DNA of 64,000 nt from an uncultured Prevotellaceae bacterium. GTDB lineage: Bacteria > Bacteroidota > Bacteroidia > Bacteroidales > Muribaculaceae. Below, piece after piece: positions 18,771 through 39,216 of the stretch. Each line of letters begins with the position of its first letter. Positions within the stretch are counted from its first letter, which is position 1. The notes beneath the pieces were generated by a model, which ran no database searches, was not told the origin of the DNA, and was given only the letters and a program-made list of their open reading frames with translations. The stretch is taken from assembly GCA_900314215.1 (NCBI GenBank), contig OMUK01000101.1:9830-73829 (forward strand), written 5' to 3'. Made by a program: the position numbers and the translations under genes.

Positions 18771-19580
18771 ATGGAGAAAGAGCGACAAGGATATTACCGC
18801 AATCATGGCAAGGAAGAGGCGTTTTACCGCTCCTTTGTGCCCACGCCCCTGCAGGAAATCGACCTGGAGGTCGACGAGCCGATGCACACGCTCCTGCTGG
18901 CGGCCGAGCGGCGGCTCACGGGCACCGCGGGCATCGACGCGCTGGAGCAGGAAGCACGCTCGTCGGTCAACCTTGCCTATGGCGAGAGTGATATTGAGCT
19001 GAAGTTTGACTTGCTCACCATCGGCAGCCACAAGCAGGAAGATGTGGGCTATTTGCGCGATGCCATGCGATATGCGCTCGAGCGCATGCGCTACTTGCCG
19101 CTCTCGGGGCGGCTGCTCAAGGAGTTGCACGGGGTGATGATGCGCGGCCGTCACAACGAGAAGAAGTATCCCGGCGAGTTCCGCCGCTCGCCCATCTGGA
19201 TTGGGGCCGAGGGCGACACGCTCTCCACAGCCGCCTATGTGCCGCCCACGGCCGACGACATGCACGAGGCCTTCACCATGCTCGAGAAATACATCAACTA
19301 CGAGGACCACACCCATCCGCTCATCATGGCGGCACTCATCCACTACCAGTTTGAAGCCATCCACCCCTTTATCGACGGCAACGGGCGCATGGGCCGCCTG
19401 CTCGCCCTGCTTTTCCTCATCGAGCGCGGCGTGCTGCGTGGCTACTCCCTGCCCCTGTCGCACGGCCTCAACCGCAATCCCTTCAAGTACTACACCCGCC
19501 TGGCGGCCGTCGAGGTCTCGGGCGCCTACGAGCGCTGGGTGAAGTACTTCTTGCAAGCCCTCCTGTGGGGATTGAGCTGA
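18771..19580 (+). CDS. Fic-domain protein (short)
   Basis: Canonical HPFIDGNGRMGR, PGEFRRSPIWIG; start could be 18726 or 18771. Confidence 0.88.
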   Translation: MEKERQGYYRNHGKEEAFYRSFVPTPLQEIDLEVDEPMHTLLLAAERRLTGTAGIDALEQEARSSVNLAYGESDIELKFDLLTIGSHKQEDVGYLRDAMRYALERMRYLPLSGRLLKELHGVMMRGRHNEKKYPGEFRRSPIWIGAEGDTLSTAAYVPPTADDMHEAFTMLEKYINYEDHTHPLIMAALIHYQFEAIHPFIDGNGRMGRLLALLFLIERGVLRGYSLPLSHGLNRNPFKYYTRLAAVEVSGAYERWVKYFLQALLWGLS

Positions 19581-19633: not shown

Positions 19634-20836
19634 ATGATGAAAGAGAGACTTTGGAATGCTAACTACAACAAGGTGATGGTGGCCAACTTCGGCCTGTTTT
19701 TTTCGTTCTACCTGCTGGCGCCGTTGCTGCCCATCTACCTTGCCGACACCTTCCACGCCACCAAGGACGTGATAGGCGTGGTGCTTTTTGGCTACACCAT
19801 TGCCGCGCTGGTCATCAGGCCCTTCTGCGGCTTCTTTGTCGACAGTTTCAACCGCAAGCGGGTGCTGCTGGTGTGCCTGGGCGTCTACGCCCTGTTTTTC
19901 ACAAGCTATCTCGCGGCAAGTTCGTTGCTGCTCTTTGCCATCGCCCGCACCCTGCACGGCGCACCCTTCGGAGCCTCGACCGTGGCCAATTCCACCGTGG
20001 CCATCGACGTGCTCCCGCCCAGCCGCCGCAACGAGGGCATAGGCTACTACGGCCTGAGCAACAACCTGGCCACCGCCATCGCGCCCACCGTGGGCATCTT
20101 CATCTACAGCCACACCCACAACTTCAAGTATCTCTTCTGGCTCGCCCTCATCATCGCCATCGTGGGATTTGCCGCCGACAGCACCGTGCACTTGCCGGCC
20201 AAGGCGATTGTGAAAAACAAGCAGCCCCTCTCGCTCGACCGCTTCTTTCTCACGCGCGGGTGGCTGCTGGGCGTCAACGCCGCCATCTTCGGCCTGTGCT
20301 ATGGCATTTTGAGCAATTACCTGGCCATCTACGGCAAGGAGCGGCTGGGCATCGTGGGCGGCACGGGCACCTATTTCGCCTTGCTCTCGGTGGGCCTCAT
20401 CGCCTCGCGCATCGAGGGCGGCCGCTCGCTACGCAAGGGGCTGCTCGTGCACAACGCCGCCATGGGCATCGTGCTCTCGACCGTGGGCTACACGCTATTT
20501 GTAGCCTGCCCCACCCTGGCGGGCTACTACCTCTCGGCCTTCCTCATCGGGCTGGGCAACGGCCACATGTGGCCCGCCTTCCAAAACATGATCATCAACG
20601 TCGCCTACCACTACGAGCGCGGCACCGCCAATTCCACCCTGCTCACCATGTGGGACCTGGGCCAAGGCGCCGGCATCTTGTGCGGCGGCCTGGTGGCCGA
20701 GCGCTGGGGCTACACCGCCGCCTTCGTCATGATGGCTGCCATGCACGCGCTGGGGCTCTTGCTCTTCTTCCTGCACACCCGAGGCTTCTTCCTGCGCAAG
20801 AAAGCCTACATCGACTCCACCCTTGGCACTCTATGA
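19634..20836 (+). CDS. MFS transporter
   Basis: 12 hydrophobic segments, G.FVDSFNRKR motif A, RTLHG, EGIGYYG. Confidence 0.92.
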   Translation: MMKERLWNANYNKVMVANFGLFFSFYLLAPLLPIYLADTFHATKDVIGVVLFGYTIAALVIRPFCGFFVDSFNRKRVLLVCLGVYALFFTSYLAASSLLLFAIARTLHGAPFGASTVANSTVAIDVLPPSRRNEGIGYYGLSNNLATAIAPTVGIFIYSHTHNFKYLFWLALIIAIVGFAADSTVHLPAKAIVKNKQPLSLDRFFLTRGWLLGVNAAIFGLCYGILSNYLAIYGKERLGIVGGTGTYFALLSVGLIASRIEGGRSLRKGLLVHNAAMGIVLSTVGYTLFVACPTLAGYYLSAFLIGLGNGHMWPAFQNMIINVAYHYERGTANSTLLTMWDLGQGAGILCGGLVAERWGYTAAFVMMAAMHALGLLLFFLHTRGFFLRKKAYIDSTLGTL

Positions 20837-21739: not shown

Positions 21740-24700
21740 ATGAAAGGCAGTTCGCTCTTTTAGGAGCAATTCTCCTGGCATGTGGAACGGTGGGCACTAT
21801 CAATGCAGCCCAACCGGCTCCTCAGGTTGTGTCGAGCAATGTGGGCACAACCATCGTGAAAGGTACTGTCGTCGATGAGAAGGGTGATCCCGTGATCGGC
21901 GCCAGTGTCGTAGAACCTGGAACTACCCGCGGCACATCGACCGACATCAACGGTCACTTCTCGTTGCGGGTGAGCACCAATGCCAAGGTGCAAATCTCTT
22001 ACATCGGCTACAAGACGGTAACCCGCCCAGCCGGTGACAACATGAACATCAAGCTGGAGACCGACAACGCCCTCCTCGACGAGGTGGTGGTTGTGGGTTA
22101 CGGCCAGCAAAAGAAGGTCAACCTCACTGGCGCAGTAGCCAACGTTGACCTCGACAAGACGCTCACCTCTCGTCCTGAGCAAGATGTGACCAAGGCACTG
22201 CAAGGCGCTGTGCCCGGCCTCACCATCCTCAACACCAGTGGTGATATCAACAGTGAGCCTACCATCCAAATACGTGGCGTGGGCTCCCTCAACGGCAACG
22301 GCGCTCCCCTCATCGTGGTCGACGGCGTACCTACCGACGACCTGTCGATGATCAACGGCGAGGACATCGCCACAATCTCGGTGCTCAAGGATGCAGCATC
22401 ATCGTCGATCTACGGTACCCGTGCAGCCTTTGGTGTGATCCTGATCACCACCAAGCAGGCCAAGAAGGGTGACCGCGTGAGTGTGAAGTACAGCAACAAC
22501 TTCGCTTGGGACCAGGCTACCTACCTGCCCGACTTCCCCGACGTGCCCACCCAGCTGACGGCAGCCCTCGAGGCTAAGGCCCGCGCAGGCAGTGGCTCGG
22601 TCGAGCTCTTCGGTATGTACTTCGACAAGTTGCTCCCCTACGCTCAGGCTTGGAAGGAACAACACGGCGGCAAGAAGGGCTACGGCCCCATGCAGCCCTA
22701 CGAGAGCATGGACAACGTGGGTGACTACTACTTCAATGGCAACCAACCCCTGTACTATGCCGACTACGACATACAAGACATCTGGTACAACAACGCAGCT
22801 CCATCGCAGACTCACGACATCTCGGTGACTGGCTCGAGCGGCCGCACCACCTATTACCTGGACTTCGGCTACAACTACAAGGAAGACCAGATGAACTTCA
22901 ACCCCGCCAAGCGCAAGCGCTACAACGCTACTGTGAACCTGCAAACCGACCTCACCGACTGGCTCACTGTGGGTGCCCGCGTGAACTTCACGCGCCGCCA
23001 CTTCAGCCGTGCCGATGCCTGGAGCAACATGTACCAGTACATATGGCGCTGGGGCTCGTTCTTCGTGCCTAGCGGCACTATCAACGGTCTCGACACCCGC
23101 TTCATCGCTATGCAGAAGCAAGCTGCCCGCAAGCAGGTGACCAACGACAACACCCGCCTGAACGGCTGGTTGCGCGCCAACATCACCAAGAATCTGACCC
23201 TGAACGCCGACTTTACCTATACGATAGGCAACATGAACAGCCACAGCAGTGACTTCACCGTGCGCGGCTACAACTGGAGCGGCGTTACTCCTCAAAACAT
23301 TGTGGGCCAAAGCAGCACCGACACTTGGCGCGACAATGGCAAGACCAACACTTGGGTTGCCAATGCCTACCTCACCTATCAAAACACCTGGAACGATGCT
23401 CACAACCTGAGCGTGATGCTGGGTGTGAACGGCGAGGATATGAAATATGACTACTTCTATGCTCAGAAGCCCGAGCTCTACTCGCAAAACTATGAAGACC
23501 TGGGCCTCACCTATGGCGACCGCTCGAAGTGGGCTATCAACAACGGCACCAACGACCGCGCTTCGGCTGGCTACTTCGGCCGTATCAACTACGACTACAA
23601 GGGCACCTACCTGGTTGAGCTCAATGGCCGCTACGACGGTTCTTCTCGCTTCCCCAAGGGCGACAAGTGGGCATTCTTCCCCAGCTTCTCTCTGGGCTGG
23701 CGTTTCAGCCAGGAAGCCTTCTGGGAGAGCATTCGCGACAAGGTGAGCAACGGCAAGCTGCGCTTCTCCTATGGCGAAATCGGCAATGAGGATGTGGGCT
23801 CAAGCTGGCCCTACATCTCGACGCTCGACGTGATCAGCGAGAGCAATGTGCACTGGCTCAACTCCAGCGGCTCTAAGGTGAACGAGTTTGGCATGCCCGA
23901 GTGGGTATCGTCGAGCCTCACCTGGGAGCGCATCAAGACCCTCGACGTGGGTCTCGACCTGGGCCTGTTCAACGACATGGTGACCATGGGCTTCGACTGG
24001 TATCAGCGCACCACCAAGGACATGCTCGCTCCTGGTAGCGCAGTGCCTGCATCGGTGGGCGCAAGCGCACCTATGGGCAACGGCGGCAAGCTGCGCACTC
24101 GCGGTTGGGAACTCAACCTGAGCTGGCGCAAGCAGTTCAACAAGGACCTGGGCGCTTATGTAACCTTCAACCTGGCCGACAGCAAGAGCAAAGTCACCAA
24201 GTGGGACAACGACAAGAACATAGGTCACCCGCTGAGCACCGCCTACGCTTATGAGGGCGAGACTTGGGGCGACATCTGGGGCTTTGAGACCGACCGCTAC
24301 TTCACCGAGGCCGACTTCAAGGGCAAGAATGCCGATGGCAGCTGGATCTATGCCGACGGCGTAGCCGACCAGACCGGCCTGCAGAACAACCAGTTTGTAT
24401 ACGGCCCTGGCGACATCAAGTTCAAGGACCTCAACGGCGACGGCGTGATCGACGGCGGTAAGGGTACGGCCGACGACCATGGCGACCTCAAGGTGATAGG
24501 CAACTGCCTGCCACGCTATGAGTACAGCTTCCACCTGGGCGGCAACTACCGCGGCTTCGACCTCGACCTCTTCTTCCAGGGCGTGGGCAAGCGCAAGCAA
24601 TGGACCACCTCGGCCTTCATGTCGCCTGAGATGCGTGAGAGCGACCTCGCCATCTACGACCACCAGACCAGCTACAACCGCTACCTGCCCGACCAGGGCA

Positions 24701-25080
24701 TTGTGGACATCAGCGAGAGCAACGACTTCCCAGTGCTCTATCCTGGCAACGACGGTGCCGGCACTGTTTCGGCTCTGGCTGCCGAGGGCGGCTGCCACAA
24801 CTTCTACCCACAGAGCAAGTATATCATCGACATGAGCTACCTGCGCCTCAAGAACGTGACCCTGGGCTACACCCTGCCCATGGAGCTCACCAAGAAGGCC
24901 TACATCCAGAAACTTCGCATCTATGCCAGCGTCAACAACCTGTGCCTGCTTCACAAGGGCTCGGGCGACCTGCCCATCGATCCTGAAATCAACACCGGCC
25001 AAGGCGCTGCCTATGGTGGCTGGGGCCGTACCTACCCCATCACCCGCAGGTGGTCGTTCGGCTTGCAGCTCACATTCTAA
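21740..25080 (+). CDS. susC: SusC/RagA TonB-dependent outer-membrane transporter with a 1-nt frameshift at 21743-21745
   Basis: LDEVVVVGYG.QKK.NLTGAV, ISVLKDAASSSIYGTRAAFGVILITTK, YDGSSRF, C-terminal F; adding one A after ATGAAA gives the signal peptide MKRQFALLGAILLACGTVGTINA in frame. Confidence 0.93.
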
Positions 25081-25117
25081 TTTATCTTAATCACAAGGAT
25101 TTAAATATTTCGCTAAT

Positions 25118-26815
25118 ATGAAAAAGTCAATTTTATATATGCTGGGTGCTTCACTGCTGGTGCTCGCGAGCTGCGACGACATGCTCGACAAGTCGCCCCG
25201 CTCTGAGTTCTCCAATGATCCAAGTTTCTGGAGCAACGAGAACCAAGTGCTCACCTATAGCAACAAAATGTATGAGGACTACGCCGGCTATGGCTACGGT
25301 GGCAATGGCGGCTGGTTCTACTTCAAGAGCTTGAGCGACGACCAGGCCAACCCGAACTTCGACAACTGGACGTTCACCTCGGTTCCCAACACGTCGTCGT
25401 ACTGGAGCAGCGGCTTCACCGAGATACGCCGTTGCAACTACATGATCAATGGTCTGGCCTCGTCGTCAATGGCAGCCAGCACTCGCAACAACTACATGGC
25501 TATCGCACGCCTCAACCGCGCTTGGCAATACTTCCAGCTCGTGCGCGAGTATGGCGACGTGCAATGGCAAAGCCAGGTGATTCTTGATCCTAACGCAGCC
25601 GAAGTGAAAGGCCCACGCACCGATCGCGACGTGGTGATGGACAGCGTGCTGGCCGACCTCGACTATGCTATCGCCAATCTGGCTACCACTAGCGCCGACA
25701 ACGCTTGGAGCAAGGATATGGCTCTGGCTATGAAGAGCGACGTGTGCCTCTTTGAGGGCACCTATTGCAAGTATCGCACCCAGGCCGAGAACGGCAAGGC
25801 TCCCGATGAGACCCGTGCTCAACGCTACCTGAAGGAGTGCGTCGACGCCAGCGAGCAACTCATCAACAGCGGCCGCTACACGCTGAGCGCCAACTATGGC
25901 GATGTGTACAACAGCCTCGACCTGAGCCAAAATAGCGAAGTCATCTTCTGGCGCAACTATGCCAAGGATGTGCAAGGCCACAGCACCGTCGACTACACCA
26001 CGGGCTCTACCACTCAACGTGGTATCACCAAGGACGCTGTCGACGCCTTCCTGTTCCGCGATGGCAAGCCTCTGGCTACCACTACGCTCAACACCGACGA
26101 CAAGGCCGTGAAAAATGACGATGGCAACTACTCGATCAGCAAGATGCTTGCCAACCGCGACAAGCGCCTGAGCGTGATTGTAGACTCTATCGTGTGCTTC
26201 AAGGGCCATGGCTGGAGCCGTGGCGGCAAAACTGCCGAGATGACCTCGAGCACGGGCTACACGATCGCAAAATACGACAACCTGAACATGGGTACCGAGA
26301 ACCCCACCCTCTACCGCAACGGTATTGGCTCGGGCTACACCGACGCTCCTATCTACTGGCTCGCCGTGATTTATCTGAACGATGCTGAGGCTAAGGCCGA
26401 ACTGGGCACAATCACGCAAACCGACCTCGACGCTACCATCAATAAGCTCGAGGCTCGCGCTGGCCTGCCCGATCTTACTACCGCTCCCGCTGCCGACCCA
26501 GCCAACAACCAGGGCGTGAGCAACCTGCTGTGGGAGATACGCCGCTGCCGTCGTTGCGAACTCATGACCGACAACTGGTATCGCTACTGGGATCTCGTGC
26601 GCTGGCACCAGCTCGACAAGCTCGACAGCAGCAAGTATCCTAACATCAACCTGGGCGCTAACCTGAGCAAAGTAACGGACTGCGAGGTTGACCTCAATGG
26701 CGGCTACGCTGTAGCAAGCGCCGCAACCCGCACTTGGAACGCTCGCAACTACTTCTTCCCAGTGCCTCAGAGCCAAAGCACGCTGAGTGGCAACACCCAG
26801 AATCCTGGTTGGTGA
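25118..26815 (+). CDS. susD: SusD/RagB nutrient-binding lipoprotein
   Basis: Lipobox LASC, ARLNRAWQYFQLVREYGDV, AEAKAEL, EIRRCRRCEL, RYWDLVRW, QNPGW. Confidence 0.95.
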   Translation: MKKSILYMLGASLLVLASCDDMLDKSPRSEFSNDPSFWSNENQVLTYSNKMYEDYAGYGYGGNGGWFYFKSLSDDQANPNFDNWTFTSVPNTSSYWSSGFTEIRRCNYMINGLASSSMAASTRNNYMAIARLNRAWQYFQLVREYGDVQWQSQVILDPNAAEVKGPRTDRDVVMDSVLADLDYAIANLATTSADNAWSKDMALAMKSDVCLFEGTYCKYRTQAENGKAPDETRAQRYLKECVDASEQLINSGRYTLSANYGDVYNSLDLSQNSEVIFWRNYAKDVQGHSTVDYTTGSTTQRGITKDAVDAFLFRDGKPLATTTLNTDDKAVKNDDGNYSISKMLANRDKRLSVIVDSIVCFKGHGWSRGGKTAEMTSSTGYTIAKYDNLNMGTENPTLYRNGIGSGYTDAPIYWLAVIYLNDAEAKAELGTITQTDLDATINKLEARAGLPDLTTAPAADPANNQGVSNLLWEIRRCRRCELMTDNWYRYWDLVRWHQLDKLDSSKYPNINLGANLSKVTDCEVDLNGGYAVASAATRTWNARNYFFPVPQSQSTLSGNTQNPGW

Positions 26816-26921: not shown

Positions 26922-26974
26922 CCCATCAATGCTCCACCACCAAATTTTGAAGTCGGTTTTGACATTATCGACTA

Positions 26975-27490
26975 GCAGGGTGCGGCCCTTGTGGCCGCCC
27001 GCGCGACACGATTGCAACATTGCTTTTAATCCCATGCCCAAGGTGGTCGAGCGAGGGGAAATCGCTCCATTCGCTTTGCTCATTGCGCTCATTCCCTCGC
27101 TAGTATACCGCAATACCCTATCGGACATTGCCTTGCAGCCACATTGCTCATAGCCTCCGCTCCTGCCCGCTACCGCGCTGCAATGCCACATGCCACAATG
27201 CAGGGTGCGGCCCTTGTGGCCGCCCGCACGCGGTGCTGCCAGTGGGTAATCCTTGCAAAATCTCTATGCGATGCAACCAAGTGGCATCGAACGGAACAAT
27301 AACGAAACAATAACGGGTCAACAACGGGACAATGAGGACGGCCACAAGGGCCGCACCCTGCCAGTCACACACACGTGGTTGACCTGTAGGGGCCGGTCTT
27401 GTGCCGACTCAAAACAATGTTATTCCATATTTTGCTAATAATCAAATAATTGCAACCGCATTTGTGAGCCACCACAAGATCGGCCCCTAC
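26975..27490. repeat. Cluster of five REP-like palindromes (three REP-A, two REP-B) including two inverted doublets
   Basis: GCAGGGTGCGGCCCTTGTGGCCGCCC at 26975 and 27200, inverted copy at 27336-27361; GTAGGGGCCG(G/A)TCTTGTG at 27386 and inverted at 27467-27490. Confidence 0.85.
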
Positions 27491-27570
27491 AATTCGGTAT
27501 AACCATGGTGGTCGTCACTGCCCACGCGTAGGGTATAACAAGGGCTCGGGCAGGGAGCTGGGGAAAAAAC

Positions 27571-27624
27571 GGGGAGGCAAGCACCTGGGGGCGCATGCAA
27601 TGACGCGCGGGTGGTTGCCTCCCC
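27571..27624. terminator. Long hairpin downstream of the TIM-barrel gene
   Basis: GGGGAGGCAA / TTGCCTCCCC arms; T run on the minus strand at 27564-27569. Confidence 0.55.
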
Positions 27625-27671: not shown

Positions 27672-28511
27672 TTACTTGCGGTTGCCGGGGATAGCCTTGA
27701 AAGCGGCGGCCTGGGCAGTCATGCCGCGCTCCGAAGCCAGACGCTCAATCGACGATGCGCCAAAGAAGCCGTCGAGCTCAGGCACGTTCTTGATCACATA
27801 GGCAGCGTCCTCGGGGTCGGCGATAGGACCGCCGTGGCATATCACCATCACATCGGGATTCACCTCGCGGCCGGCCTTGATGATCTCGCGTATCTTCACG
27901 AGGCAGTCGTCGAGCGTGACGGCAGTCTCGGCACCAATCGAACCCTTGGTAGTGAGGCCCATGTGAGCCACGAGGCAGTCGGCACCGGCAGCAGCCATGG
28001 CGCGGGCCTGGTCGGGATCAAACACATAGGGGCAGGTCACCATGTCGAGTTCATGGGCGATGCGCACCATCTCAACCTCGAGGCCGTAGCCCATGCCAGT
28101 CTCTTCCAGGTTGGCGCGGAACTTGCCGTCGATCAAGCCCACGGTTGGGAAGTTCTGCACGCCGTTGAAGCCCTGATCCTTGAGCTGGCGCAGGAAGATG
28201 TGCATGTCGCGGAAGGGGTCGGTGCCGTTCACGCCGGCGAGCACAGGGGTCTTCTTCACGATAGTGAGCACTTCCTGACCCATCTCTTGCACAATCTTGT
28301 TGGCGTCGCCATAGGCCAGCAAGCCCGAGAGTGAGCCGCGGCCAGCCATGCGGAAGCGGCCCGAGTTGTAGATGATGAGCATGTCGACACCAGCTTTCTC
28401 CGAGCACTTGGCGGTGATACCGGTTCCGGCACCCACACCCACGAGGATTTTACCACTTTCTACTTGTTTCTTGAAGTTTGCGAGAATTTCTTTTCTTGTT
28501 GCGCGATACAT
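27672..28511 (-). CDS. PEP-hydrolase-like TIM-barrel protein (TIM-br_sig_trns family)
   Basis: GAGTGITAK, IIYNSGRFRMAGRGSL.GLLAYGDAN, GVNGTDPF, GVQNFPTVGL.DG.FR..LEETGMGY, HGGPI, GFFGASS.ER. Confidence 0.92.
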   Translation of the reverse strand: MYRATRKEILANFKKQVESGKILVGVGAGTGITAKCSEKAGVDMLIIYNSGRFRMAGRGSLSGLLAYGDANKIVQEMGQEVLTIVKKTPVLAGVNGTDPFRDMHIFLRQLKDQGFNGVQNFPTVGLIDGKFRANLEETGMGYGLEVEMVRIAHELDMVTCPYVFDPDQARAMAAAGADCLVAHMGLTTKGSIGAETAVTLDDCLVKIREIIKAGREVNPDVMVICHGGPIADPEDAAYVIKNVPELDGFFGASSIERLASERGMTAQAAAFKAIPGNRK

Positions 28512-28565
28512 AGTTGTAATAATTTTAAGTTGTTGATTTATGATTGATTAGTTAGATGTTCTCAG

Positions 28566-29792
28566 TTATTTTTTTGCAGCCTCGATGAGGTCGAGCAGCT
28601 TCTGGGCCGCAGTCTGGGCAAAGCGCTTGTCGTTGATGTTGCAGTCTAGCTCGTCGATCTCTACATTGGGATTGTCGATACCTTGCTTGAGGGTGTCGAA
28701 GAGGGCCTTGCGGGCCACCTTGTCTTCAAATGGCTGCCCGTCGGCGTCGATCATCGACACGCCCCCGTCGGGAAGCATGAGCACCATGGGAGCCTCGGCC
28801 TTGTTCCACTTGCCGGCCATGATGCGGCCCATGGCCACATTCTCGTCGGGCGTGGTGCGCATCAGGGTCACCGTGGGGTTGTGCTGGTAGAGGTTGCGCT
28901 GGGCAAATTTTGCGGGCACCGTGTCGCGGGGGCCGAAGTTCACCATGTCGGTAGCGCCCACCGACACCACCTGGGGCACTTTGCACTTGATGGCGGCGTC
29001 GAGACGGTCGGGGCCGGCGTTGAGCACGCCGCCCACCAGCTCGTCGCACCACTCGGTGGTGGTGAGGTCGAGCACGCCCACAAAGTAGCCGGCATTGATG
29101 AGCGACTCCATCGTGCGGCCGCCCGTGCCGGTGCAGTGAAACACGAGCACCTCGTAGCCGCGCTCCTCAAGGTATCGCTTGGCCTCATCGACACACGGGG
29201 TGGTCACGCCAAACATTGTGGCGGCGATGAGCGGCTTGGTTTGCTCGGTGTCGGGGGCGAGCTTGTCCTTCAAGCCCACCATGCCGGCAACGGCAAGCAC
29301 CGCGTTGCGGAATATGGTCTTCGACACCTCGTTGAGGCCAGCCACATCCACAATCGAGGGCATCATGATGATGTCGCTCGTGCCCACATATTGCGACACA
29401 TTGCCCGAGGCCATGGTCGACACCAGCACCTTGGGCACGCCCAGGGGCAGTGCGCGCATGGCAGGCGCCACCAGCGACGAGCCGCCCGAGCCGCCCATCG
29501 AGATGATGCCGTCGAAGTGCCCCTCCTTGTAGAGCTTAGGCACCAGAGCAAGCATGCCCTTGGAGAGCGCCTCCATGGCCAGAGCGCGGTCGTGGCGCTC
29601 CACAATCTGCTTGATGTCGTAGCCAGCGGCGGCAGCCACCTGGTCGCTGCCCACATCGGGAGTGAACGCGGGGGTGAACACACCCGTGTTGATGGTATAG
29701 GTATTCAGCCCTAACTGCTCAATGAGGCCCTTGAGGTAGAGGAACTCACGGCCTTTGGTATCAAACGTACCAGCGATTGCAATTGTCTTCAT
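28566..29792 (-). CDS. Tm-1-like ATP-binding domain protein (UPF0261), canonical copy
   Basis: Start MKTIAI at 29792; GTFDTKG, GGSGG, STMASG, PSIVDVAGLN, TMFGVTTPCV, FHCTGTGG, DLTTTE, DMVNFG, HNPTVTLMRT. Confidence 0.92.
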   Translation of the reverse strand: MKTIAIAGTFDTKGREFLYLKGLIEQLGLNTYTINTGVFTPAFTPDVGSDQVAAAAGYDIKQIVERHDRALAMEALSKGMLALVPKLYKEGHFDGIISMGGSGGSSLVAPAMRALPLGVPKVLVSTMASGNVSQYVGTSDIIMMPSIVDVAGLNEVSKTIFRNAVLAVAGMVGLKDKLAPDTEQTKPLIAATMFGVTTPCVDEAKRYLEERGYEVLVFHCTGTGGRTMESLINAGYFVGVLDLTTTEWCDELVGGVLNAGPDRLDAAIKCKVPQVVSVGATDMVNFGPRDTVPAKFAQRNLYQHNPTVTLMRTTPDENVAMGRIMAGKWNKAEAPMVLMLPDGGVSMIDADGQPFEDKVARKALFDTLKQGIDNPNVEIDELDCNINDKRFAQTAAQKLLDLIEAAKK

Positions 29793-29834
29793 CTTGTTGT
29801 TCAGTTTAGTGTTATTGGTTTTATTTTTCTGCTG

Positions 29835-29901
29835 CAAAAATACAATGGCACCCACCAAGCCCAAAATAAAAACAGCGCATGAAATTTCACAATCAGCGCA
29901 T
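29835..29901 (-). promoter_or_regulatory. Promoter (-33/-7) with two upstream direct repeats 21 bp apart
   Basis: TATTTTTG (29835-29842), 19-nt spacer, TTTG (29862-29865); CAGCGCAT at 29873 and 29894. Confidence 0.6.
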
Positions 29902-29969
29902 TCCACCAGCCCGCTTCCAAAACTCCCCAATCCCGTAGCACCACCCCTTCAAATCATAGAAGAGATGTG

Positions 29970-30773
29970 TCAGTCTTGGAGGTGCTTGGGGGAGAGGCCC
30001 AGGTTTTTCTCAATGTAGCGGGTGAAATAGGAGGGAGAGGAGAAATGATAGTAGTAGGCGAGCTCCTGGATGGTGTGCTGGTGCTCGTAGAGGCGGCGGC
30101 GCATGTCGAGTTGCAGGAATCGGTTGATCCAGTAGGCGGCCGAGAAGCCGGTGCACTGGCGGGAGACGCGCGCGAGGTGCTTGGCCGAGACGCACAGCTC
30201 TTGGGCGTAGTGGTCCACGTCGCGGTGCTCGTGGTAGTCGCCGCGCTCGAGCATGGCCATGAAGCCCTTCATGAGATTGCTGTAGCGCGAGGTGGAGCGC
30301 ACTTGCCCGCGGCGCTGCGCCAGAATGTCGAAGAGGTCGAGCAACAAGAGTTGCACGCCATGCTGCAGCACCTTGTCGTAGTAGTGGTGCTCCTGATGCA
30401 ACTGGTGGTAGCTCACAAACTGGAAATTGGCGCGCATCACCATCATCTGGTCGCTGGTGAGATGCAGCACGGGGTTGAGAAAGAGCTCCATCTGCCCCTT
30501 CACGGCATAGTCCATGTCGCGGAATGAGTTGATGTAGACGGCATTGAGCAGCAAGATTTCGATCAGGCAATCGTGGCTCTGGCCCTGGGGGCTCAAGCGC
30601 GCGCAGCGGCTCACGGCGATGTCCTGCGACCGCAAGGTGATGCGGCGGCTGTTGTAGCCAAAGGTGCACTCACCACGCCTGCACAGCAAGATGGCCACAT
30701 ATTGGCCCAAGCGCGGGTCGGCAATGTCGCGCAGGCTATACTTGAAAATCACGTTTTCCTGCTCCTTCATCAC
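29970..30773 (-). CDS. AraC-family transcriptional regulator
   Basis: HRDVDHYAQELCVSAKHL, FSSPSYFTRY...GLSP; ATGA overlap with the upstream Tm-1-like gene. Confidence 0.9.
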   Translation of the reverse strand: MMKEQENVIFKYSLRDIADPRLGQYVAILLCRRGECTFGYNSRRITLRSQDIAVSRCARLSPQGQSHDCLIEILLLNAVYINSFRDMDYAVKGQMELFLNPVLHLTSDQMMVMRANFQFVSYHQLHQEHHYYDKVLQHGVQLLLLDLFDILAQRRGQVRSTSRYSNLMKGFMAMLERGDYHEHRDVDHYAQELCVSAKHLARVSRQCTGFSAAYWINRFLQLDMRRRLYEHQHTIQELAYYYHFSSPSYFTRYIEKNLGLSPKHLQD

Positions 30774-32002
30774 GATTTTTTCTTTTCCATGAGGTCGATG
30801 AGCAACTGGGCGGCATGGTGGGCAAACCGCGGGTCGTTGATGTGCAACGGCATCACCTCAATCTTCACTTTGGGATTATAGATGTGCTCTTGCAGGGCGC
30901 CGATGATGGCATTGCGGGCGTCGGGGTCGTCGAAGGGCTGACCGGGAGCGTCGAGAGCCGACACGCCGCCTGCGGGCAACAGCACCACCATGGGTGAGTG
31001 GGTATTGTTCCACTTGTCGGCCAGCACGTCGCCCACGCGGGCGCACTCCACGGCGGTGGTGCGCATGAGGGTGACGTTGGCATTGTGGCGATAGAGGTTG
31101 CGGCGGGCATAGCGCATGGGCACCGAGCTCACGGGGCCAAAGTTGACCATGTCGGTAGCGCCTATCGACACCACCTGGGGCACGCGGCAGGCGATGGCGG
31201 CGTCGAGGCGCGTGGGGCCGGCGCCCAGCATGCCGCCCAGCAGCTCGTCGCACCACTCGGTGGTGGTGAGGTCGAGCACGCCTGCAATGGCGCCCTCGTT
31301 GATAAACTTCTCCATCGTGCGGCCGCCGGCGCCAGTGCAGCTGAACTCGAGCACGTCGTAGCCGCGCTCCTCGAGGTAGCGCTTGGCCTCGCTCACGCAG
31401 TCGCTCGTGAGCGAGAACACCGAGATCGCCACCGTGGGGCGGGTCGACTTCTCGGGAGCAGGACGGTGCAGCACCATGCCGGCGATGGCGTTGACGGCAT
31501 TGACGTAGACCTGCCGCGAGATGCGGTCGAGCCCGTCGGCATTCACAATCGAGGGCATGAGCAGGATGTCGCTGGTCTCCACATAGTCCTTCACCGTTCC
31601 CGATGCCACGGTGGTGACCATGAGCTTGGGCACCCCGATGGGCAGCAAGCGCATCACGGCGGTGATGGCAGCCGTGTCCGACGAGCCGCCCAGCGAGAGC
31701 ATGCCGTCGAGCTCGCCCACGGCCTGGAGACGTAGCACCACCTTGCGCAGCCCGGCATAAATGGCAGCCACGGCACGGTGCTGGTCGCCGCTGTCGAGCA
31801 GTTGCTGCAAGTTGTCGCCAGCCAGGCGCGCGAGTTCGCCGTTATCCACATCGGGCTTGAAGAGTGGCTTGTGCAATCCCGTGTGTATCATGTAGGGACG
31901 CACGCCACGCTCCTCAAGCAGCCGCTTGATGAAGGCGAACTCGCGGCCGCGCACCCCGAAGGTGCCAGCCACCACCACGGTCTTGAGATTTTGTGTCATC
32001 AT
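30770..32002 (-). CDS. Tm-1-like (UPF0261) paralog, motif-degenerate copy
   Basis: Full-length alignment by eye to 28566-29792; conserved DLTTTEWCDEL, GATDMVNFGP, HNANVTLMRT; N-terminal motifs altered. Confidence 0.9.
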   Translation of the reverse strand: MMTQNLKTVVVAGTFGVRGREFAFIKRLLEERGVRPYMIHTGLHKPLFKPDVDNGELARLAGDNLQQLLDSGDQHRAVAAIYAGLRKVVLRLQAVGELDGMLSLGGSSDTAAITAVMRLLPIGVPKLMVTTVASGTVKDYVETSDILLMPSIVNADGLDRISRQVYVNAVNAIAGMVLHRPAPEKSTRPTVAISVFSLTSDCVSEAKRYLEERGYDVLEFSCTGAGGRTMEKFINEGAIAGVLDLTTTEWCDELLGGMLGAGPTRLDAAIACRVPQVVSIGATDMVNFGPVSSVPMRYARRNLYRHNANVTLMRTTAVECARVGDVLADKWNNTHSPMVVLLPAGGVSALDAPGQPFDDPDARNAIIGALQEHIYNPKVKIEVMPLHINDPRFAHHAAQLLIDLMEKKKS

Positions 32003-32021: not shown

Positions 32022-32029
32022 CAAATATA
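32022..32029 (-). promoter_or_regulatory. -7 box for the Tm-1-like/AraC operon
   Basis: TATATTTG on the minus strand 20 nt upstream of the ATG. Confidence 0.55.
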
Positions 32030-33086: not shown

Positions 33087-35183
33087 ATGAGAAAACTACT
33101 GACTTTATGTTTTGCACTCATGTCGATGTTGATTGCCACGCCACAGCTTCGAGCCGAAGAGGTGGCGGCGACGCCGCCCGGCAACGAGGCGTCCTCCACA
33201 GGCGAGCAACTCGGCACAATGCCAAGTAGTGTGAGCGCAGTGTTCAGGCAGATCGAGCGGGTGAATGCCGCCGGCATCCAGGCTGGCGACGCCACTGTCG
33301 ACAAGGTCGAGCCTCAATCGCCCCAATTCAAGCAGGGCAAGGCACAGTTGAGCCTGAGCCCCATCGTGCAGCAAGCACGCAAGGCAAGCCGCAAGGCAGC
33401 CACCCTGGCCACCGGCGAGTATTTCTCGCGCGACTCCAGCTACTATGACAACGACAACTACAGCCACATGGCACTCGTCATTGCCGATGGCAGCGCCAAG
33501 ATGATTAATGTGTACAGCTACGGCGACACCATCGATGTGAACTACAACGTCTCGACGGGCGCCTTCTCCATCCCGGCGCAGAAGTTGTATCACTTCGACA
33601 CCTATGGCGATGTGTATGCCTGCCCGGTGAGCTTCAGCAGCGGCGCGGTGACCTACAGCACCACTGGCTCGATAAGCGGCACGGTGGCCGACGACGGCAC
33701 CATCACCCTGCAGCCCTGGGGCATCTTTGTGATAAGCGGCGACTACACCGGTTCGGTGGTCAACGCTTTCTATATGAGCGCCTGGCACCCCAAGAACGCC
33801 ACCATCAAGACCTACAATGCCAAGCATGTGCTCACGAGCTACAGCGCCTATGTAGAGCAGAATGCCGACAACGAAATCAGGGTCTACAACTTCAGCAACA
33901 CGGGCAACGTGACAGGCAACGGCTATGTGGGCGGCATCGCCTCAAGCGTGTCGGGCGGCAACACACTGGAGTATTGCGAGAACACTGGCAACGTCGAGAC
34001 CGTGCGCAGCTCGTCGTCGGCAATCTACACCGGCGGCATCGCTGCCTACGTGAGCGGCACTGCCACCAATCCCGCCTATGCGCGCTACCTGCTCAACAAG
34101 GCTCCTGTCACCAGCCAAGGCTCCTATGTGGGCGGCGTGATAGGCAACTTCAGCAATGCCGAGGCCACAGGCCTCTACAATGCTGGCAAGGTCACTGCCA
34201 CACACTACGGCACGGGCTCGAGCGCTCGCTATGCCACCTATGTGGGCGGCGTGGTTGGCATGTTCGCCGGCCAGGGCAATGTGATGTGGAATATTGCCGA
34301 CGTCACTGCCGAGGGCTACGCCGTGGGCGGTATCGCCGGCCAGGGCAACGGCACCGTGTCGCAATGCTTCAACGCAGGCAATATGCATGCCGACGGTCAG
34401 GGCAAGTCGTCGCTGGCCAGCGCCGGCGGAATATGGGGCGTGGGACGCCCGTCGATCAACGGCTGCTACAACCTGGGCACTGTGAATGGCCCCGACAAGA
34501 TTGCAGGCATCATAGTCGAATTGGCCAACACCGGCAGCATCACCAATTGCTACAACGCTGGCGTGCTCGCACCCACAGCAACTGGCGCCTCAATCGTGAA
34601 GAGCATCGCCTACCAGAGCGGAGCCACTGCCACCTGCTCGGGCAATGCCTACCTGAGCGACATCAACGAGGCTTATCCCGACACAGCACACGGCATCCCC
34701 GTCACAATTGACCAACTCATGGCGGGCGAAGGCCTTGCCGACCTCTACGTGATCAATCGCGCTGCCTATCCCGTGCCCGACTCGCTCATAGGCGAGCCCA
34801 TCGCACGCTACTATGCAGCCAGCCTGGCCTTCGCACCTGGCGACAGCGCAATGGGAGTGACGCAGAACTTCTATGTGGGCGCACTCGACAGCGTGGCATG
34901 GACCTCGAGCGACAACATCTCGATCGACGCCACTGGCACCGCCACTGCCCAAGTGGGCAATGGCTGGGTGAAAAAGTCAATCTCGTGGAATGGCATCGAC
35001 CTGGAGCGCCAGTATGCCATCAACGTGCTTGAGACCACCGGCATCAACGGCATCAACACCAATGGCAGCGACAACGCCATCGACAAGCGCATCTACAGCA
35101 TCGACGGCCGCTACATGGGCACCGATGCCAGCGTGCTGCCAAGCGGCATCTACATCCAGGGCGGAAAGAAGCACATCAAGTAA
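33087..35183 (+). CDS. Secreted T9SS-type protein with GLUG-like repeats
   Basis: Signal peptide; repeated NxGxV...YVGGI units; C-terminal TGINGI...IYSIDGRY...LPSGIYIQGGKKHIK. Confidence 0.85.
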   Translation: MRKLLTLCFALMSMLIATPQLRAEEVAATPPGNEASSTGEQLGTMPSSVSAVFRQIERVNAAGIQAGDATVDKVEPQSPQFKQGKAQLSLSPIVQQARKASRKAATLATGEYFSRDSSYYDNDNYSHMALVIADGSAKMINVYSYGDTIDVNYNVSTGAFSIPAQKLYHFDTYGDVYACPVSFSSGAVTYSTTGSISGTVADDGTITLQPWGIFVISGDYTGSVVNAFYMSAWHPKNATIKTYNAKHVLTSYSAYVEQNADNEIRVYNFSNTGNVTGNGYVGGIASSVSGGNTLEYCENTGNVETVRSSSSAIYTGGIAAYVSGTATNPAYARYLLNKAPVTSQGSYVGGVIGNFSNAEATGLYNAGKVTATHYGTGSSARYATYVGGVVGMFAGQGNVMWNIADVTAEGYAVGGIAGQGNGTVSQCFNAGNMHADGQGKSSLASAGGIWGVGRPSINGCYNLGTVNGPDKIAGIIVELANTGSITNCYNAGVLAPTATGASIVKSIAYQSGATATCSGNAYLSDINEAYPDTAHGIPVTIDQLMAGEGLADLYVINRAAYPVPDSLIGEPIARYYAASLAFAPGDSAMGVTQNFYVGALDSVAWTSSDNISIDATGTATAQVGNGWVKKSISWNGIDLERQYAINVLETTGINGINTNGSDNAIDKRIYSIDGRYMGTDASVLPSGIYIQGGKKHIK

Positions 35184-35351: not shown

Positions 35352-36230
35352 ATGCAGATAAGCAAATACATGGTGGCATCGCCACACGACTGCCAGTGGG
35401 GCCTCACGGTGAGCACCGTGGGACTCGACGAGATTGCTCCCGGCGACGCCTACCCCACCAGCGGCCACGCCGACGGCTACTACTTCGACCCGCGCAAGGG
35501 GCGCACGCTCGAGGAGTACCAGATGCTCTATCTCGTGGAGGGCGAGGGCACCTTTGAGTCGGCCACAATGACGGCCACGCGCATCAAGGGCGGCGACCTC
35601 TTCCTGCTCTTCCCCGGCGAGTGGCACACCTATTGCCCCCTGCCCAGCTCGCACTGGAAAAGCTACTGGATAGGCTACAAAGGCCGCAACATGGACGACC
35701 GCGTGAAAGCCGGCTTCCTCACTCCCGAGAAGCCCATCTACCACGTGGGCTTCTCGGCCGAGATTGTGCGCCTCTACGAGACGGCGCTCAAGACGGCTCA
35801 GAGCGAGCCAGCCTATGTGCAGCCCATTCTGGCCGGCATCGTCAACCACCTGGTGGGATTGATGTACTCGCTGGAGCGCAACCGGCAACTCAGCCAGAAG
35901 CCGAGCCACATCGACGAGATCAACCAGGCTCGCCTGCGCATACGCCAGTCGCTCGAGCAGGACCTGAGCATTCAGCGCATTGCCAAGGACCTGGGCATGA
36001 GCTACAGCAGCTTCCGCAAGTTCTTCAAGGAGTACACCGGCATCTCACCCGCCCTCTACCAGCAGGACCTGCGCCTGCAGCGTGCCAAGGAGCTGCTCAC
36101 CACCACCTCGATGAGCATCAAGAGCATAGCCTATCAACTGCAGTTTGAGTCGCCCGACTACTTCTCCAGCAAGTTTAAGAACAAGACCGGAATGAAACCC
36201 AGCGACTTCCGCTCGATGCACCAAGCTTAG
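35352..36230 (+). CDS. rhaR: AraC-family regulator, probable rhamnose regulator
   Basis: Bacteroides-type AraC (GRTLEEYQMLY, FPGEWHTY, FESPDYFS); directly upstream of rhaB. Confidence 0.8.
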   Translation: MQISKYMVASPHDCQWGLTVSTVGLDEIAPGDAYPTSGHADGYYFDPRKGRTLEEYQMLYLVEGEGTFESATMTATRIKGGDLFLLFPGEWHTYCPLPSSHWKSYWIGYKGRNMDDRVKAGFLTPEKPIYHVGFSAEIVRLYETALKTAQSEPAYVQPILAGIVNHLVGLMYSLERNRQLSQKPSHIDEINQARLRIRQSLEQDLSIQRIAKDLGMSYSSFRKFFKEYTGISPALYQQDLRLQRAKELLTTTSMSIKSIAYQLQFESPDYFSSKFKNKTGMKPSDFRSMHQA

Positions 36231-36365
36231 CCATTGCCACCCCCACACACACAGCGCGATTTTGTGCAAAACGTGAAGGCCAAAAATCAAATAACAAAGT
36301 CGCAGGCCGAAAATATGGCCTAAATTTGTGGCAACAAAAACTTAAATGACAACATCCCAAAAACT

Positions 36366-37835
36366 ATGAATACTGCAAAGAGCTATTTCGCCGTTGACCT
36401 GGGTGCCACCAGCGGCCGCACCATCGTGGGCACCATCGAGCACGGGCAGGTGAAGCTCGAGGAGCTCACCCGATTTTCCAACCCCATCATCGAGCTGCAG
36501 GGCCACTGCTACTGGGACCTCTACGCCCTCTATAACGAAATCATAAAAGGTCTCAAGACCGCCGCCAGAGAGGGCGTGCAGGTGCAAAGCATAGGTATCG
36601 ACACCTGGGGCTGCGACTTTGTGGCCGTGGGCCACGACGGCGCGTTGCTCTCCAATCCCCTCTGCTATCGCGACCCCCACACGGCCCACACCATGCAGGC
36701 CTATTTCGCCGAGTCGATCGACCGCAAGCAGGTGTATGCCAAGACGGGTATCCAGTTTATGAACTTCAACTCCTTGTTTCAGCTCTACCAGATGCACAAA
36801 GACGGCAACGTGGCCCTGTGCAACGCCAGCAAGATACTCTTCATCCCCGACGCGCTGAGCTATCTGCTCACGGGCAAGGCCGTGTGCGAGTACACCGTGG
36901 CCTCGACCTCGCAGTTGCTCAACCCCATGCAGGGTGACCTCGACCCCGACCTGCTCAAGTCGGCAGGCCTCACGCGCGAGCAGTTTGGGCCCATGACCCA
37001 GCCTGGCACCGTGATAGGCACCCTCACGCCCGAGGTGCAACGCCTCACGGGGCTGGGCGAGGTGCCAGTGGTGGCTGTGGCTGGCCACGACACTGCCTCG
37101 GCTGTGGCTGCCGTGCCAGCGCGCGACGAGCACTTTGCCTATCTCTCGTCGGGCACATGGAGCCTCATGGGCATCGAGACCCGCAATGCCATCATCAACC
37201 AGGAGAGCTACGACAAGAACTTCACCAACGAGGGCGGCATCGGCGGCACCACCCGCTTCTTGAAAAACATATGCGGCATGTGGATATATGAGTGCTGCCG
37301 CCGCGAGTGGAAGGGCACCGTCGACGTCAGCCACGCCAAGTTGCAGCACGAGGCCATGCAACAGCCTGCCTTCAGGAGCCTCATCAATCCCGACGACCCT
37401 GCCTTTGCCAACCCCACATCGATGCTCCAGGCCATCGACGACTACTGCCGCGGCACCCAGCAGCCCGTGCCCGCCAGCCCGGCGGCCTATTGCCGCTGCA
37501 TCTTCGAGTCGCTGGCCCTGCGCTACCGTCAGGTTTTCTCGTGGCTCAAGGAGTTTGCCCTCTTCCCCATCGAGGTGCTCCACATCATAGGCGGCGGCGC
37601 CATGAATGAGTATCTCGACCAGTTCACCGCCAACTCATGCGGCGTGGTGGTGCTCGCCGGTCCGCAAGAGGGCACCGCCCTGGGCAACATCATGCTCCAG
37701 GCCAAAGCCAGCGGCGAGGTGGGCGACACATGGCAGATGCGCCGCATCATTGCCCAGTCGATCTCGCTCAAGCGATTTGAGCCTCGCGACAAGCAGGCTT
37801 GGGATGCCGCCTATGAGCGTTTCCTCCATCTTTAA
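36366..37835 (+). CDS. rhaB: Rhamnulokinase
   Basis: AVDLGATSGR, GIDTWGCD, TGIQFMNFNSLFQL, SSGTWSLMG, NFTNEGG; -7 box TAAATTTG at 36321. Confidence 0.95.
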   Translation: MNTAKSYFAVDLGATSGRTIVGTIEHGQVKLEELTRFSNPIIELQGHCYWDLYALYNEIIKGLKTAAREGVQVQSIGIDTWGCDFVAVGHDGALLSNPLCYRDPHTAHTMQAYFAESIDRKQVYAKTGIQFMNFNSLFQLYQMHKDGNVALCNASKILFIPDALSYLLTGKAVCEYTVASTSQLLNPMQGDLDPDLLKSAGLTREQFGPMTQPGTVIGTLTPEVQRLTGLGEVPVVAVAGHDTASAVAAVPARDEHFAYLSSGTWSLMGIETRNAIINQESYDKNFTNEGGIGGTTRFLKNICGMWIYECCRREWKGTVDVSHAKLQHEAMQQPAFRSLINPDDPAFANPTSMLQAIDDYCRGTQQPVPASPAAYCRCIFESLALRYRQVFSWLKEFALFPIEVLHIIGGGAMNEYLDQFTANSCGVVVLAGPQEGTALGNIMLQAKASGEVGDTWQMRRIIAQSISLKRFEPRDKQAWDAAYERFLHL

Positions 37836-37886
37836 TCACCACAACACGACATAAAATAACAACAAAAAAATATAAACCACGACATT

Positions 37887-39140
37887 ATGAAATCAGAAAT
37901 CATCGAGAAAAATTACCAAGTAGCACGGGAGCGCTATGCCGCCCTGGGCATCGACACCGACAAGGCCATCGCCACCCTCGAGCAGACGCCAATAAGCCTG
38001 CATTGCTGGCAGGCCGACGACGTGGTGGGCTTTGAGCGCAACGTGGCTGCCTCGGGCGGCATCCAGACCACCGGCAACTACCCCGGCAAGGCCCGCAACA
38101 TCGACGAGCTGCGCCAGGACATCGCCGAGGTGATCTCGCTGCTGGCCGGCACCTTCCGCCTCAACCTGCACGAGACCTACGGCGAGTTTGGCGGCACATT
38201 TGTCGACCGCGACCAGGTGGAGGTGAAGCACTTCACGGGCTGGATGGACTGGGCCAAGGAGCACAACCTCAAGCTCGACTTCAACTCCACCAGCTTCTCG
38301 CACCCCAAGAGCGGCAATCTCACGCTGAGCAACCCCGACAAGGAGATACGCGACTTCTGGATTGAGCACACCAAGCGCTGCCGTCGCATCGCCGACGCCA
38401 TGGGCAAGGCCCAGGGCGACCCCTGCATGATGAACATATGGATACACGACGGCTCCAAGGACTACACCGTAGAGAAGCTGCGCTACCGCCAAATCTTGAA
38501 AGAAAGCCTCGACGACATCCTCGCCGAGCCGCTGCCCAACATGAAGACCTGCCTCGAGGCCAAGCTTTTCGGCATCGGGCTGGAGGCCTACACCGTGGGC
38601 TCCCACGACTTCTATGCCGGCTACTGCGCCAAGAATAACGTGATCTACACCCTCGACACCGGCCACTACGAGCCCACCGAGAACGTGAGCGACGCCGTGA
38701 GCTCGCTGCTGCTCTTTGTGCCCGAACTCATGCTCCACGTGTCGCGCCCCATGCACTGGGACAGCGACCACGTGACCCTCTACGACGACAACACGCGCAA
38801 CCTCTTTGCCGAGCTCGTGCGTGCCAATGCCCTCGACCGTGCCCACATAGGCCTCGACTACTTCGACGCCAGCATCAACCGCATCGGCGCCTATATCATA
38901 GGCGTGCGCGCTGCCCAGAAGAGCTTGCTGCAAGCCCTGCTCGAGCCCCTCGACACACTGCGCCGCTACGAGGACGAGGGCAAACTCTTTGAGCGCCTGG
39001 CCCTGCTCGAGGAGGAGAAGACGCTGCCGATGGGTGCCGTCTACGACTACTACAACCTGAAGCATGGCGTGCCCGTGGCCGAGGACTACATAGGCCAAGT
39101 AGTGCAATATGAGCGCGACGTGCTCGCCAAGCGCAACTAA
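37887..39140 (+). CDS. rhaA: L-rhamnose isomerase
   Basis: ISLHCWQADDV.GFE, TGNYPGKAR, LHVSRP.HWDSDHV, GLDYFDASINRI. Confidence 0.97.
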   Translation: MKSEIIEKNYQVARERYAALGIDTDKAIATLEQTPISLHCWQADDVVGFERNVAASGGIQTTGNYPGKARNIDELRQDIAEVISLLAGTFRLNLHETYGEFGGTFVDRDQVEVKHFTGWMDWAKEHNLKLDFNSTSFSHPKSGNLTLSNPDKEIRDFWIEHTKRCRRIADAMGKAQGDPCMMNIWIHDGSKDYTVEKLRYRQILKESLDDILAEPLPNMKTCLEAKLFGIGLEAYTVGSHDFYAGYCAKNNVIYTLDTGHYEPTENVSDAVSSLLLFVPELMLHVSRPMHWDSDHVTLYDDNTRNLFAELVRANALDRAHIGLDYFDASINRIGAYIIGVRAAQKSLLQALLEPLDTLRRYEDEGKLFERLALLEEEKTLPMGAVYDYYNLKHGVPVAEDYIGQVVQYERDVLAKRN

Positions 39141-39154
39141 ACGTGCAACCCGTG

Positions 39155-39193
39155 ATGCCCCCGCACCGCGGCATGCTGTCGCGGTGCGGGCAT
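39155..39193 (+). other. Intercistronic GC-rich hairpin between rhaA and rhaT
   Basis: ATGCCC(C)CGCACCGCGGCA / TGTCGCGGTGCGGGCAT, no T tail; mRNA stabiliser or partial terminator. Confidence 0.55.
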
Positions 39194-39216
39194 TCACAAC
39201 AATATGACCTATCGAA

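Follow-up and report, generated by a model that had tools for sequence, protein, structure and literature searches.

What does a bacterium gain from two diverged copies of one UPF0261 gene, one of them directly ahead of its own AraC-type regulator? The question is raised by a locus in a 64,000-nt stretch of DNA from an uncultured Prevotellaceae bacterium (Muribaculaceae in GTDB; contig OMUK01000101.1, positions 9,830 to 73,829), referred to below as the window. An initial annotation had placed two UPF0261 (Tm-1-like) paralogs, an AraC-family regulator and a TIM-barrel protein at 27672-32002 on its minus strand. We confirmed all four genes there, in the order B-AraC-A-TIM, where A and B denote the two paralogs and TIM the barrel protein, and the locus does indeed lack a characterised function. 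As a whole, it is best explained as a self-contained, horizontally spread cassette for the inducible conversion of a small molecule, in which AraC would activate A and TIM, and B would be a non-catalytic regulatory protein. We give this reading a probability of roughly 0.55.

The four gene assignments are clear. B (30770-32002, 410 aa) and A (28566-29792, 408 aa) are both full-length UPF0261 members, each with the two Pfam domains of the family (PF06792 and PF23189) above the gathering score. For A, the N- and C-terminal profiles gave E-values of 5e-62 and 7e-97 (209 and 323 bits), and for B 9e-48 and 4e-84 (163 and 282 bits; cut-off 27). The NCBIfam subfamily PRK02399.1-2 scored 592 and 481 bits respectively (cut-off 335), and the two proteins are 53% identical end to end. 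The barrel gene (27672-28511, 279 aa), partner of A, covers positions 1-267 of the 267 in the PEP_hydrolase profile PF09370, also annotated as 'TIM-barrel signal transduction' (E 5e-124, 413 bits), and matches the structure of Mll9387 (PDB 2P10) at E 4e-106. The regulator (29970-30773, 267 aa) belongs to the AraC/XylS family, carries the Pfam domain HTH_18 (E 1e-14, 54.6 bits) and begins with GTG at 30773 or ATG at 30770. The TGA of B overlaps this start (GTGATG at 30770-30773), so that B and AraC form a single translationally coupled unit. For A, the most likely start is the ATG at 29792 (MKTIAIAGTFDTKG..., 408 aa), which fits the N-termini of all homologs; a mechanically called TTG start at 29930 was dropped.

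Is this arrangement a chance neighbourhood or a unit? The B-AraC-A-TIM order recurs in five other independent metagenomic contig lineages (L003, L005, L007/L008, L009 and L010, with the contig ending inside A in L003 and L009), all instances coming from ENA/Logan metagenomic assemblies, which shows that the architecture is not due to chance. The flanking genes all differ and include a thiamine operon, sulfatase with SecG and LptE, a nucleoside hydrolase, ABM and flavin reductase, and DUF4251. As the four-gene order is kept while the flanks differ, the genes travel as a unit. B and AraC are separated by -4 to +21 nt (6/6 cassettes), and AraC orthologs, 45-55% identical, come after B in every case. 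Identity among cassettes is 88-91% for TIM, 78-83% for A and 55-70% for B. In L010, the TIM gene is split into two open reading frames (ORFs; 78 and 196 aa, L010:3774-4604), reflecting either a frameshift or stop of that lineage or a Logan assembly error. We also considered a link through sulfatases, one following the cassette in L007 and one in the rhamnose cluster of the window, and rejected it, the two proteins being unrelated (22% identity, E 4e-4).

The initial annotation had left the taxonomic spread of the architecture to a neighbourhood survey, and the spread proved narrow. A search of 5.8 billion proteins with B as query returned few B-type clusters (70, 66, 57 and 56% identity), below which matches drop to about 53% and are ordinary A-type proteins; every B-type protein found sits in the B-AraC-A-TIM order. 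Similarly, a profile of the six B copies, run against 1.84 billion representatives at 50% identity, recovered one B-clade representative at 791 bits, the next matches scoring 499 and 468 bits. The AraC profile search gave only about seven close clusters, and pattern scans built on the AraC alignment found no relatives in GTDB representative genomes or JGI metagenomes. Within the order Bacteroidales, UPF0261 was found in 2 of 401 genomes (237 genera), and it was not found in 36 other species of the genus or in 24 other families of the order. Overall, the four-gene cassette is rare but conserved in gut/rumen-type Bacteroidales. The only other UPF0261 gene found in these genomes of the order (L029, G231:C30:1-5874) is a single copy in an unrelated cluster, next to genes for a PPDK_N dikinase subunit, a UbiD-family (de)carboxylase, a CBS-domain protein and a UbiX flavoprotein, without a TIM-barrel partner; the set resembles one for phosphorylating and carboxylating phenols, and its origin is uncertain, the contig being only 5.9 kb long.

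What reaction might the cassette carry out? The function of UPF0261 in bacteria had been described as unknown by the initial annotation, a statement now out of date. MarK (Saro_1862) of Novosphingobium aromaticivorans has been proven to be an ATP-dependent aromatic kinase and is the only UPF0261 protein with shown activity (PMC12624787, PDB 9MPY). In this homodimeric enzyme, D14/T15/K16 and G195/H219/H304 are the conserved ATP and phenol-oxygen sites, K16 aligns with the Tm-1 lysine that contacts ATP, and the E16K change raises the kinase rate about 1600-fold (PMC12624787). In the light of the function and structure of MarK, A can be interpreted as a competent enzyme and B as a degenerate one. 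A retains all six named sites, as D11-T12-K13 (MarK D14-T15-K16), G195, H219 and H304, and is a probable ATP-dependent small-molecule kinase. At the aromatic-pocket positions of MarK (F283/I285/H348) it carries M/N/I, so that it does not share the MarK pocket. The pocket of A is of the Tm-1 type, and its substrate need not be an aromatic of the acetophenone type; no acvCDEF-type carboxylase genes were found in the window. Our literature search on the UPF0261/PF09370 pair found nothing beyond MarK and a 2016 paper on the origin of Tm-1-like proteins.

B has followed a different course. A maximum likelihood tree of 71 sequences places the six B copies in a single clade (99 in the Shimodaira-Hasegawa-like approximate likelihood ratio test, SH-aLRT) that groups with the cassette A copies; support is 93 for the 13-row group of A and B and 98 for the smallest starred set holding both (20 rows). 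The stem branch of B measures 0.7 and its tips are 2-4 times longer than those of A. The grouping and the long branches are consistent with the cassette having duplicated its own A once, B then changing at an accelerated rate. Most pairs of cassettes are saturated at synonymous sites, and in the only usable pair (L009/L010) the ratio of nonsynonymous to synonymous substitution rates (dN/dS) is 0.050 for B, 0.032 for AraC and 0.020 for A. Within the B clade 168 positions are invariant, and the AlphaFold 2 (AF2) model of B has a mean confidence (pLDDT) of 91.8, aligning in Foldseek with the N-terminal region of Tm-1 and with MarK at template modelling (TM) scores of 0.82 and 0.66.

The changes in B include residues of the catalytic site. 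We counted as family-invariant the 189 columns whose conservation reaches 95% or more across 117 non-B homologs; all six B copies keep 103 of these columns, and all six depart from the family in 13. The latter include K13R (MarK K16), G104D (the second glycine of the GGSGG loop, which reads GGS(S/G/A)D in B), D149N (MarK D152) and H219S/N (MarK H219). The B of the window retains only H304 of the six sites named in MarK. These positions are otherwise almost always kept in the family, with K13 being K in 136/139, D149 being D in 147/149 and H219 being H in 132/149 representatives, and none of the 149 combines the losses of K13, D149 and H219. The two B subclades differ from each other at the lost positions (G-V-R, S195 and S219 versus D-R-R, N219 and Y304), the pattern expected when an active site is dead and selection on it is relaxed. 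The N-terminal domain, the one that binds ATP in Tm-1, has diverged most: A and B are 48% identical there and 63% in the C-terminal domain, and B copies are 54% and 71% identical to one another in the same domains. By these comparisons B does not qualify as a MarK-type kinase, the ATP-site triad and H219 being absent in 6/6 orthologs, and we consider it catalytically degenerate and probably regulatory.

If B regulates, what is the switch? The AF2 model of AraC (pLDDT 88.6) has a cupin-like beta N-terminal domain, a helical linker and two helix-turn-helix (HTH) motifs; Foldseek aligned it with ToxT, Rns and CuxR over the full length and with the regulatory domains of RhaR, AraC and BgaR. The predicted structure thus combines the C-terminal double HTH and the N-terminal cupin-like domain that define AraC/XylS proteins. 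Although the flanking genes are saturated at synonymous sites, the spacer between AraC and A is conserved in the six cassettes. Within it, TGCGC(A/T)... is repeated directly at a 21-bp period, and we take this repeat as the putative AraC operator; the copy in the window has the form ATGCGC(N15)ATGCGC (ATGCGCTGATTGTGAAATTTCATGCGC, 29901-29875, minus strand). Downstream lies a box matching TAnnTTTG, the -7 consensus of Bacteroides promoters, which in the window is TATTTTTG at 29835-29842 on the minus strand and would belong to the A-TIM unit. Its position is fixed in the six cassettes: in five loci it lies 37 bp from where the second repeat begins, and in the sixth the distance is 38 bp. This layout, a pair of direct half-sites spaced by two helical turns and abutting the upstream promoter element, is the classical one of AraC as an activator at araI. 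The operator pattern, built from the six sites, has a single match in the 2.88-Mb genome, this one, even when 2 mismatches are allowed.

Such -7 boxes precede both B and A in the window. The candidate box of B, TATATTTG, lies at 32022-32029 on the minus strand, 27 nt upstream of the ATG of B. The separate promoters proposed by the initial annotation are thus supported for the A-TIM unit by its conserved operator and -7 box, and are tentative for B, where the one TAnnTTTG box is that of the window. Just past the TIM stop, a hairpin with a U-run (27571-27624, minus strand; inverted repeat I10) is the likely A-TIM terminator (dG -40.5 kcal/mol, z -6.0; none of 200 shuffles equally stable). Autorepression of B-AraC through a lone ATGCGCA half-site near the B promoter of the window found no support, the half-site being absent from all other cassettes. 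The nearest relatives of AraC outside the cassette (L011-L016; 31-37% identity) occur in Prevotella, Bacteroidaceae, Parabacteroides and Alloprevotella, next to aldo-keto reductases, flavodoxin-like reductases, esterases, and SnoaL/DUF4440 or cupin proteins; these look like carbonyl or xenobiotic detoxification clusters and hint weakly at carbonyl or aromatic ligands.

Does the same enzyme pair have a dedicated regulator elsewhere? In Caproiciproducens, in a Lachnospiraceae metagenome-assembled genome and in Paenibacillus, a UPF0261-PF09370 pair is directly preceded by a regulator of 395-407 aa, which in 4/4 loci inspected is a full PF09370 TIM barrel fused N-terminally to an AraC HTH. The fused barrel is 37% identical to the TIM of the window. 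PF09370-AraC fusions are abundant, with at least 747 clusters of proteins, and the label 'predicted TIM-barrel enzyme/AraC-like DNA-binding protein' is attached to some of these. Among the non-cassette relatives of A that we inspected, the closest (P0007, L027) also has a fusion regulator, in the order regulator-TIM-UPF0261, on a contig with ribosome-binding sites of the Firmicutes type (GGAGG). In another locus (L017), the two enzyme genes are separated by one for a DUF1097 membrane protein. The cassette AraC and the fusion regulator share only generic HTH similarity (22% identity, E 0.08), with no PF09370 match in the former. Taken together, the fusion regulators ahead of the Firmicutes pairs and the cassette AraC make a dedicated AraC the rule for this enzyme pair, in Firmicutes one fused to a TIM-barrel paralog, a point that the initial annotation had missed.

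The Firmicutes three-gene module resembles the cassette in its enzyme pair (about 51-53% identity to B, with much the same to be expected for A) and in the dedicated AraC-type regulator immediately upstream. The module differs in that the TIM barrel is duplicated and fused to the HTH, whereas in the cassette UPF0261 is duplicated as a separate protein, beside a cupin-like AraC. An enzyme-component paralog attached to the regulator has therefore arisen twice, as a TIM barrel in cis in Firmicutes and as UPF0261 in trans in Bacteroidales. A reasonable history would be that a Bacteroidales lineage took A-TIM from Firmicutes, swapped the foreign regulator for an AraC of native type and duplicated A.

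On this basis we propose that B and AraC would be co-produced at a basal level and that, when an inducer is present, the two-domain AraC would bind the 21-bp-spaced repeats abutting the -33 region and activate the A-TIM promoter. A would then phosphorylate a small molecule with ATP, and the PF09370 barrel would work alongside it or on its product. The substrate may be a hydroxylated small molecule of the gut or rumen, such as a plant phenolic or a keto-sugar or sugar acid. B, a duplicate of A that keeps its fold and its better-conserved C-terminal, substrate-side domain under purifying selection, would have given up catalysis and would serve AraC as a ligand-binding co-sensor or as an anti-activator. 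The Firmicutes fusion regulators, as an independent case of an enzyme paralog acting as sensor for its module, support B as a partner of the regulator. The more specific idea that B is a pseudoenzyme co-sensor, which would use the C-terminal pocket it retains to bind the substrate or product of the pathway and would control AraC through direct contact, is tentative, and we would not bet on it at even odds. Where the initial annotation suspected an inducible regulator/effector circuit around the Tm-1-like pair, the conserved operator and promoter, the degenerate paralog and the Firmicutes parallel support and sharpen its small-molecule half.

Several observations weigh against a circuit of this kind. 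The sample consists of six cassettes, all metagenomic, of which two pairs are close relatives, and they show no conservation upstream of B. With a cupin-like domain of its own, AraC might need no partner to sense the inducer. Identity to MarK is no more than about 27-30%, and where MarK has F283/I285/H348, the residues in A, B and Tm-1 are M/N/I(L), so that a kinase role for A is an inference. Finally, arginine sometimes replaces lysine at a phosphate site, and B could keep an altered activity. In one alternative, B remains enzymatically active with an altered reaction or specificity, carrying out a second step of the pathway or making the true inducer, as LacZ does with allolactose, and is co-expressed with AraC for that reason. 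Strong purifying selection, the intact fold, the well-conserved substrate-side domain, the 103/189 invariant columns kept and the conservative nature of the K to R change all agree with it. They have to be set against the joint loss of four family-invariant polar or glycine positions in 6/6 copies, a combination seen in no other family representative, and against the differences between subclades at the lost sites (GVR/S versus DRR/N; H304 versus Y), as expected once catalysis is no longer selected. We consider an enzymatic B rather unlikely. B could also be a structural or allosteric subunit, in an A-B heterodimer or an A-B-TIM complex, with its linkage to AraC mere operon bookkeeping. UPF0261 proteins are dimeric, as is MarK, B derives from A, and active enzymes are commonly paired with pseudoenzyme paralogs. 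A subunit of the enzyme should share its promoter with A and TIM, whereas B is never part of the induced A-TIM unit and is always coupled to AraC (6/6 cassettes), and the Firmicutes parallel points to regulator-linked paralogs, which makes the subunit role doubtful.

Two further explanations had been raised by the initial annotation. One was nucleotide-dependent inhibition of a phage helicase, in which ATP-dependent binding of A, B or both to a phage replication helicase would mirror that of tomato Tm-1 to the tobamovirus helicase. It draws only on the homology and fold match to the N-terminal part of Tm-1 and on the patchy distribution, which is of the kind left by horizontal transfer. PADLOC gave 0 hits for all four proteins, and the flanks of every cassette hold housekeeping or glycan-use genes, different at each locus, without defence or mobile genes. 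The wiring is that of a substrate-induced operon, with ligand-type AraC control through a single class-II-like operator; the enzyme pair is widespread with metabolite-type regulators, and the genes are separate, in contrast to a fused UPF0261-TIM polypeptide. Virus and helicase binding by Tm-1 is itself a derived, positively selected plant trait (PMC5028733). The cassette looks metabolic, not antiviral, and we hold an anti-phage role to be highly improbable. The other explanation, that B is a functionless, decaying duplicate with dN/dS near 1, would fit its faster evolution relative to A and the loss of catalytic-site residues; it is refuted by a single B clade with intact ORFs in six cassettes, a dN/dS of 0.05, the 168 invariant positions, the confident fold and the retained coupling to AraC, and we give it next to no credence.

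The surroundings of the cassette in the window are Bacteroidales-like, with SusC/SusD genes at 21790-26815 and a rhamnose cluster at 35352-40251. The cassette has no bracketing direct repeats. An empty site was sought in genomes of the same genus by way of the neighbouring 698-aa protein (33087-35183, plus strand), and no orthologous synteny was found. This protein has no Pfam match; parts of it match 27 places in the same genome and, at about 30-38% identity, many open frames of about 2000 aa in some congeners. It is one of a multi-copy family of giant proteins with no one-to-one ortholog in the genus, and because the family lacks orthologous synteny, no insertion boundary was set. Between susD and the cassette end (26970-27491) lies a cluster of GC-rich inverted repeats resembling repetitive extragenic palindromic (REP) elements, with 31-nt arms that are 93-94% complementary and a second type at 27385-27491. 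Further away, at 17257-18717 on the minus strand, one ORF joins an AhpC/TSA-thioredoxin-like domain to an alpha/beta hydrolase domain, convergent with a BD-FAE-type esterase gene (15652-17151, plus strand). Beyond this ORF follow a Fic-domain gene (18726-19580) and an MFS transporter gene (19634-20836).

Why would such a rare locus matter? The UPF0261/PF09370 gene pair is very widespread, occurring in bacteria, in archaea and, as Tm-1, in plants; MarK is its sole biochemical data point, with none for the paired form. The cassette offers a compact circuit in which a single regulator and a unique operator serve one enzyme pair, beside a natural, catalytically degenerate paralog, and A and B together amount to a natural mutagenesis experiment on catalytic residues. 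If B is such a pseudoenzyme co-sensor, the Tm-1-like pair has twice independently recruited a paralog of its own component as ligand sensor of an AraC protein, and the sensors with the single operator would provide a reporter route to the substrate of the whole UPF0261/PF09370 family, plant Tm-1 included. The cassette and the Firmicutes fusion illustrate the repeated recruitment of enzyme paralogs as sensors. As the cassette is rare, its ecological weight is small, and its value lies in the handle it gives on an orphan family.

Among known systems, the closest solved relative is tomato Tm-1 (PDB 3WRV-3WRY), at E 2e-90 for A and 1e-76 for B. A and TIM correspond to the two halves of Tm-1, and the pocket-lining motif GA(T/L)DMVNFGP is also shared with it. 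Tm-1 is one fused plant polypeptide that binds a viral helicase, whereas the halves are separate genes in the cassette, under transcriptional control of a metabolite type. MarK is a member of the two-domain family as well, matched in phmmer by A at E 1e-59 and by B at 7e-48, and differs in acting alone, without a TIM-barrel partner, in an acetovanillone carboxylase operon. On the regulatory side, E. coli AraC at araI/pBAD and RhaR/RhaS likewise combine a cupin-like domain with two HTH motifs, and araI shares with the cassette the direct half-sites of 21-bp period abutting the upstream promoter element. In contrast to E. coli AraC, the cassette has a promoter of the Bacteroidetes -33/-7 type and an extra co-translated partner protein. 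For B, the nearest analogies are regulators derived from enzymes ('trigger enzyme' paralogs), such as the ROK-family repressors and BzdR with its shikimate-kinase-like sensor domain. Like the proposed B, these are kinase-fold paralogs that have lost catalytic residues and are kept to regulate their own pathway. In them the enzyme-like domain is fused to a DNA-binding domain, whereas B would act in trans, on an AraC that has a sensor domain of its own.

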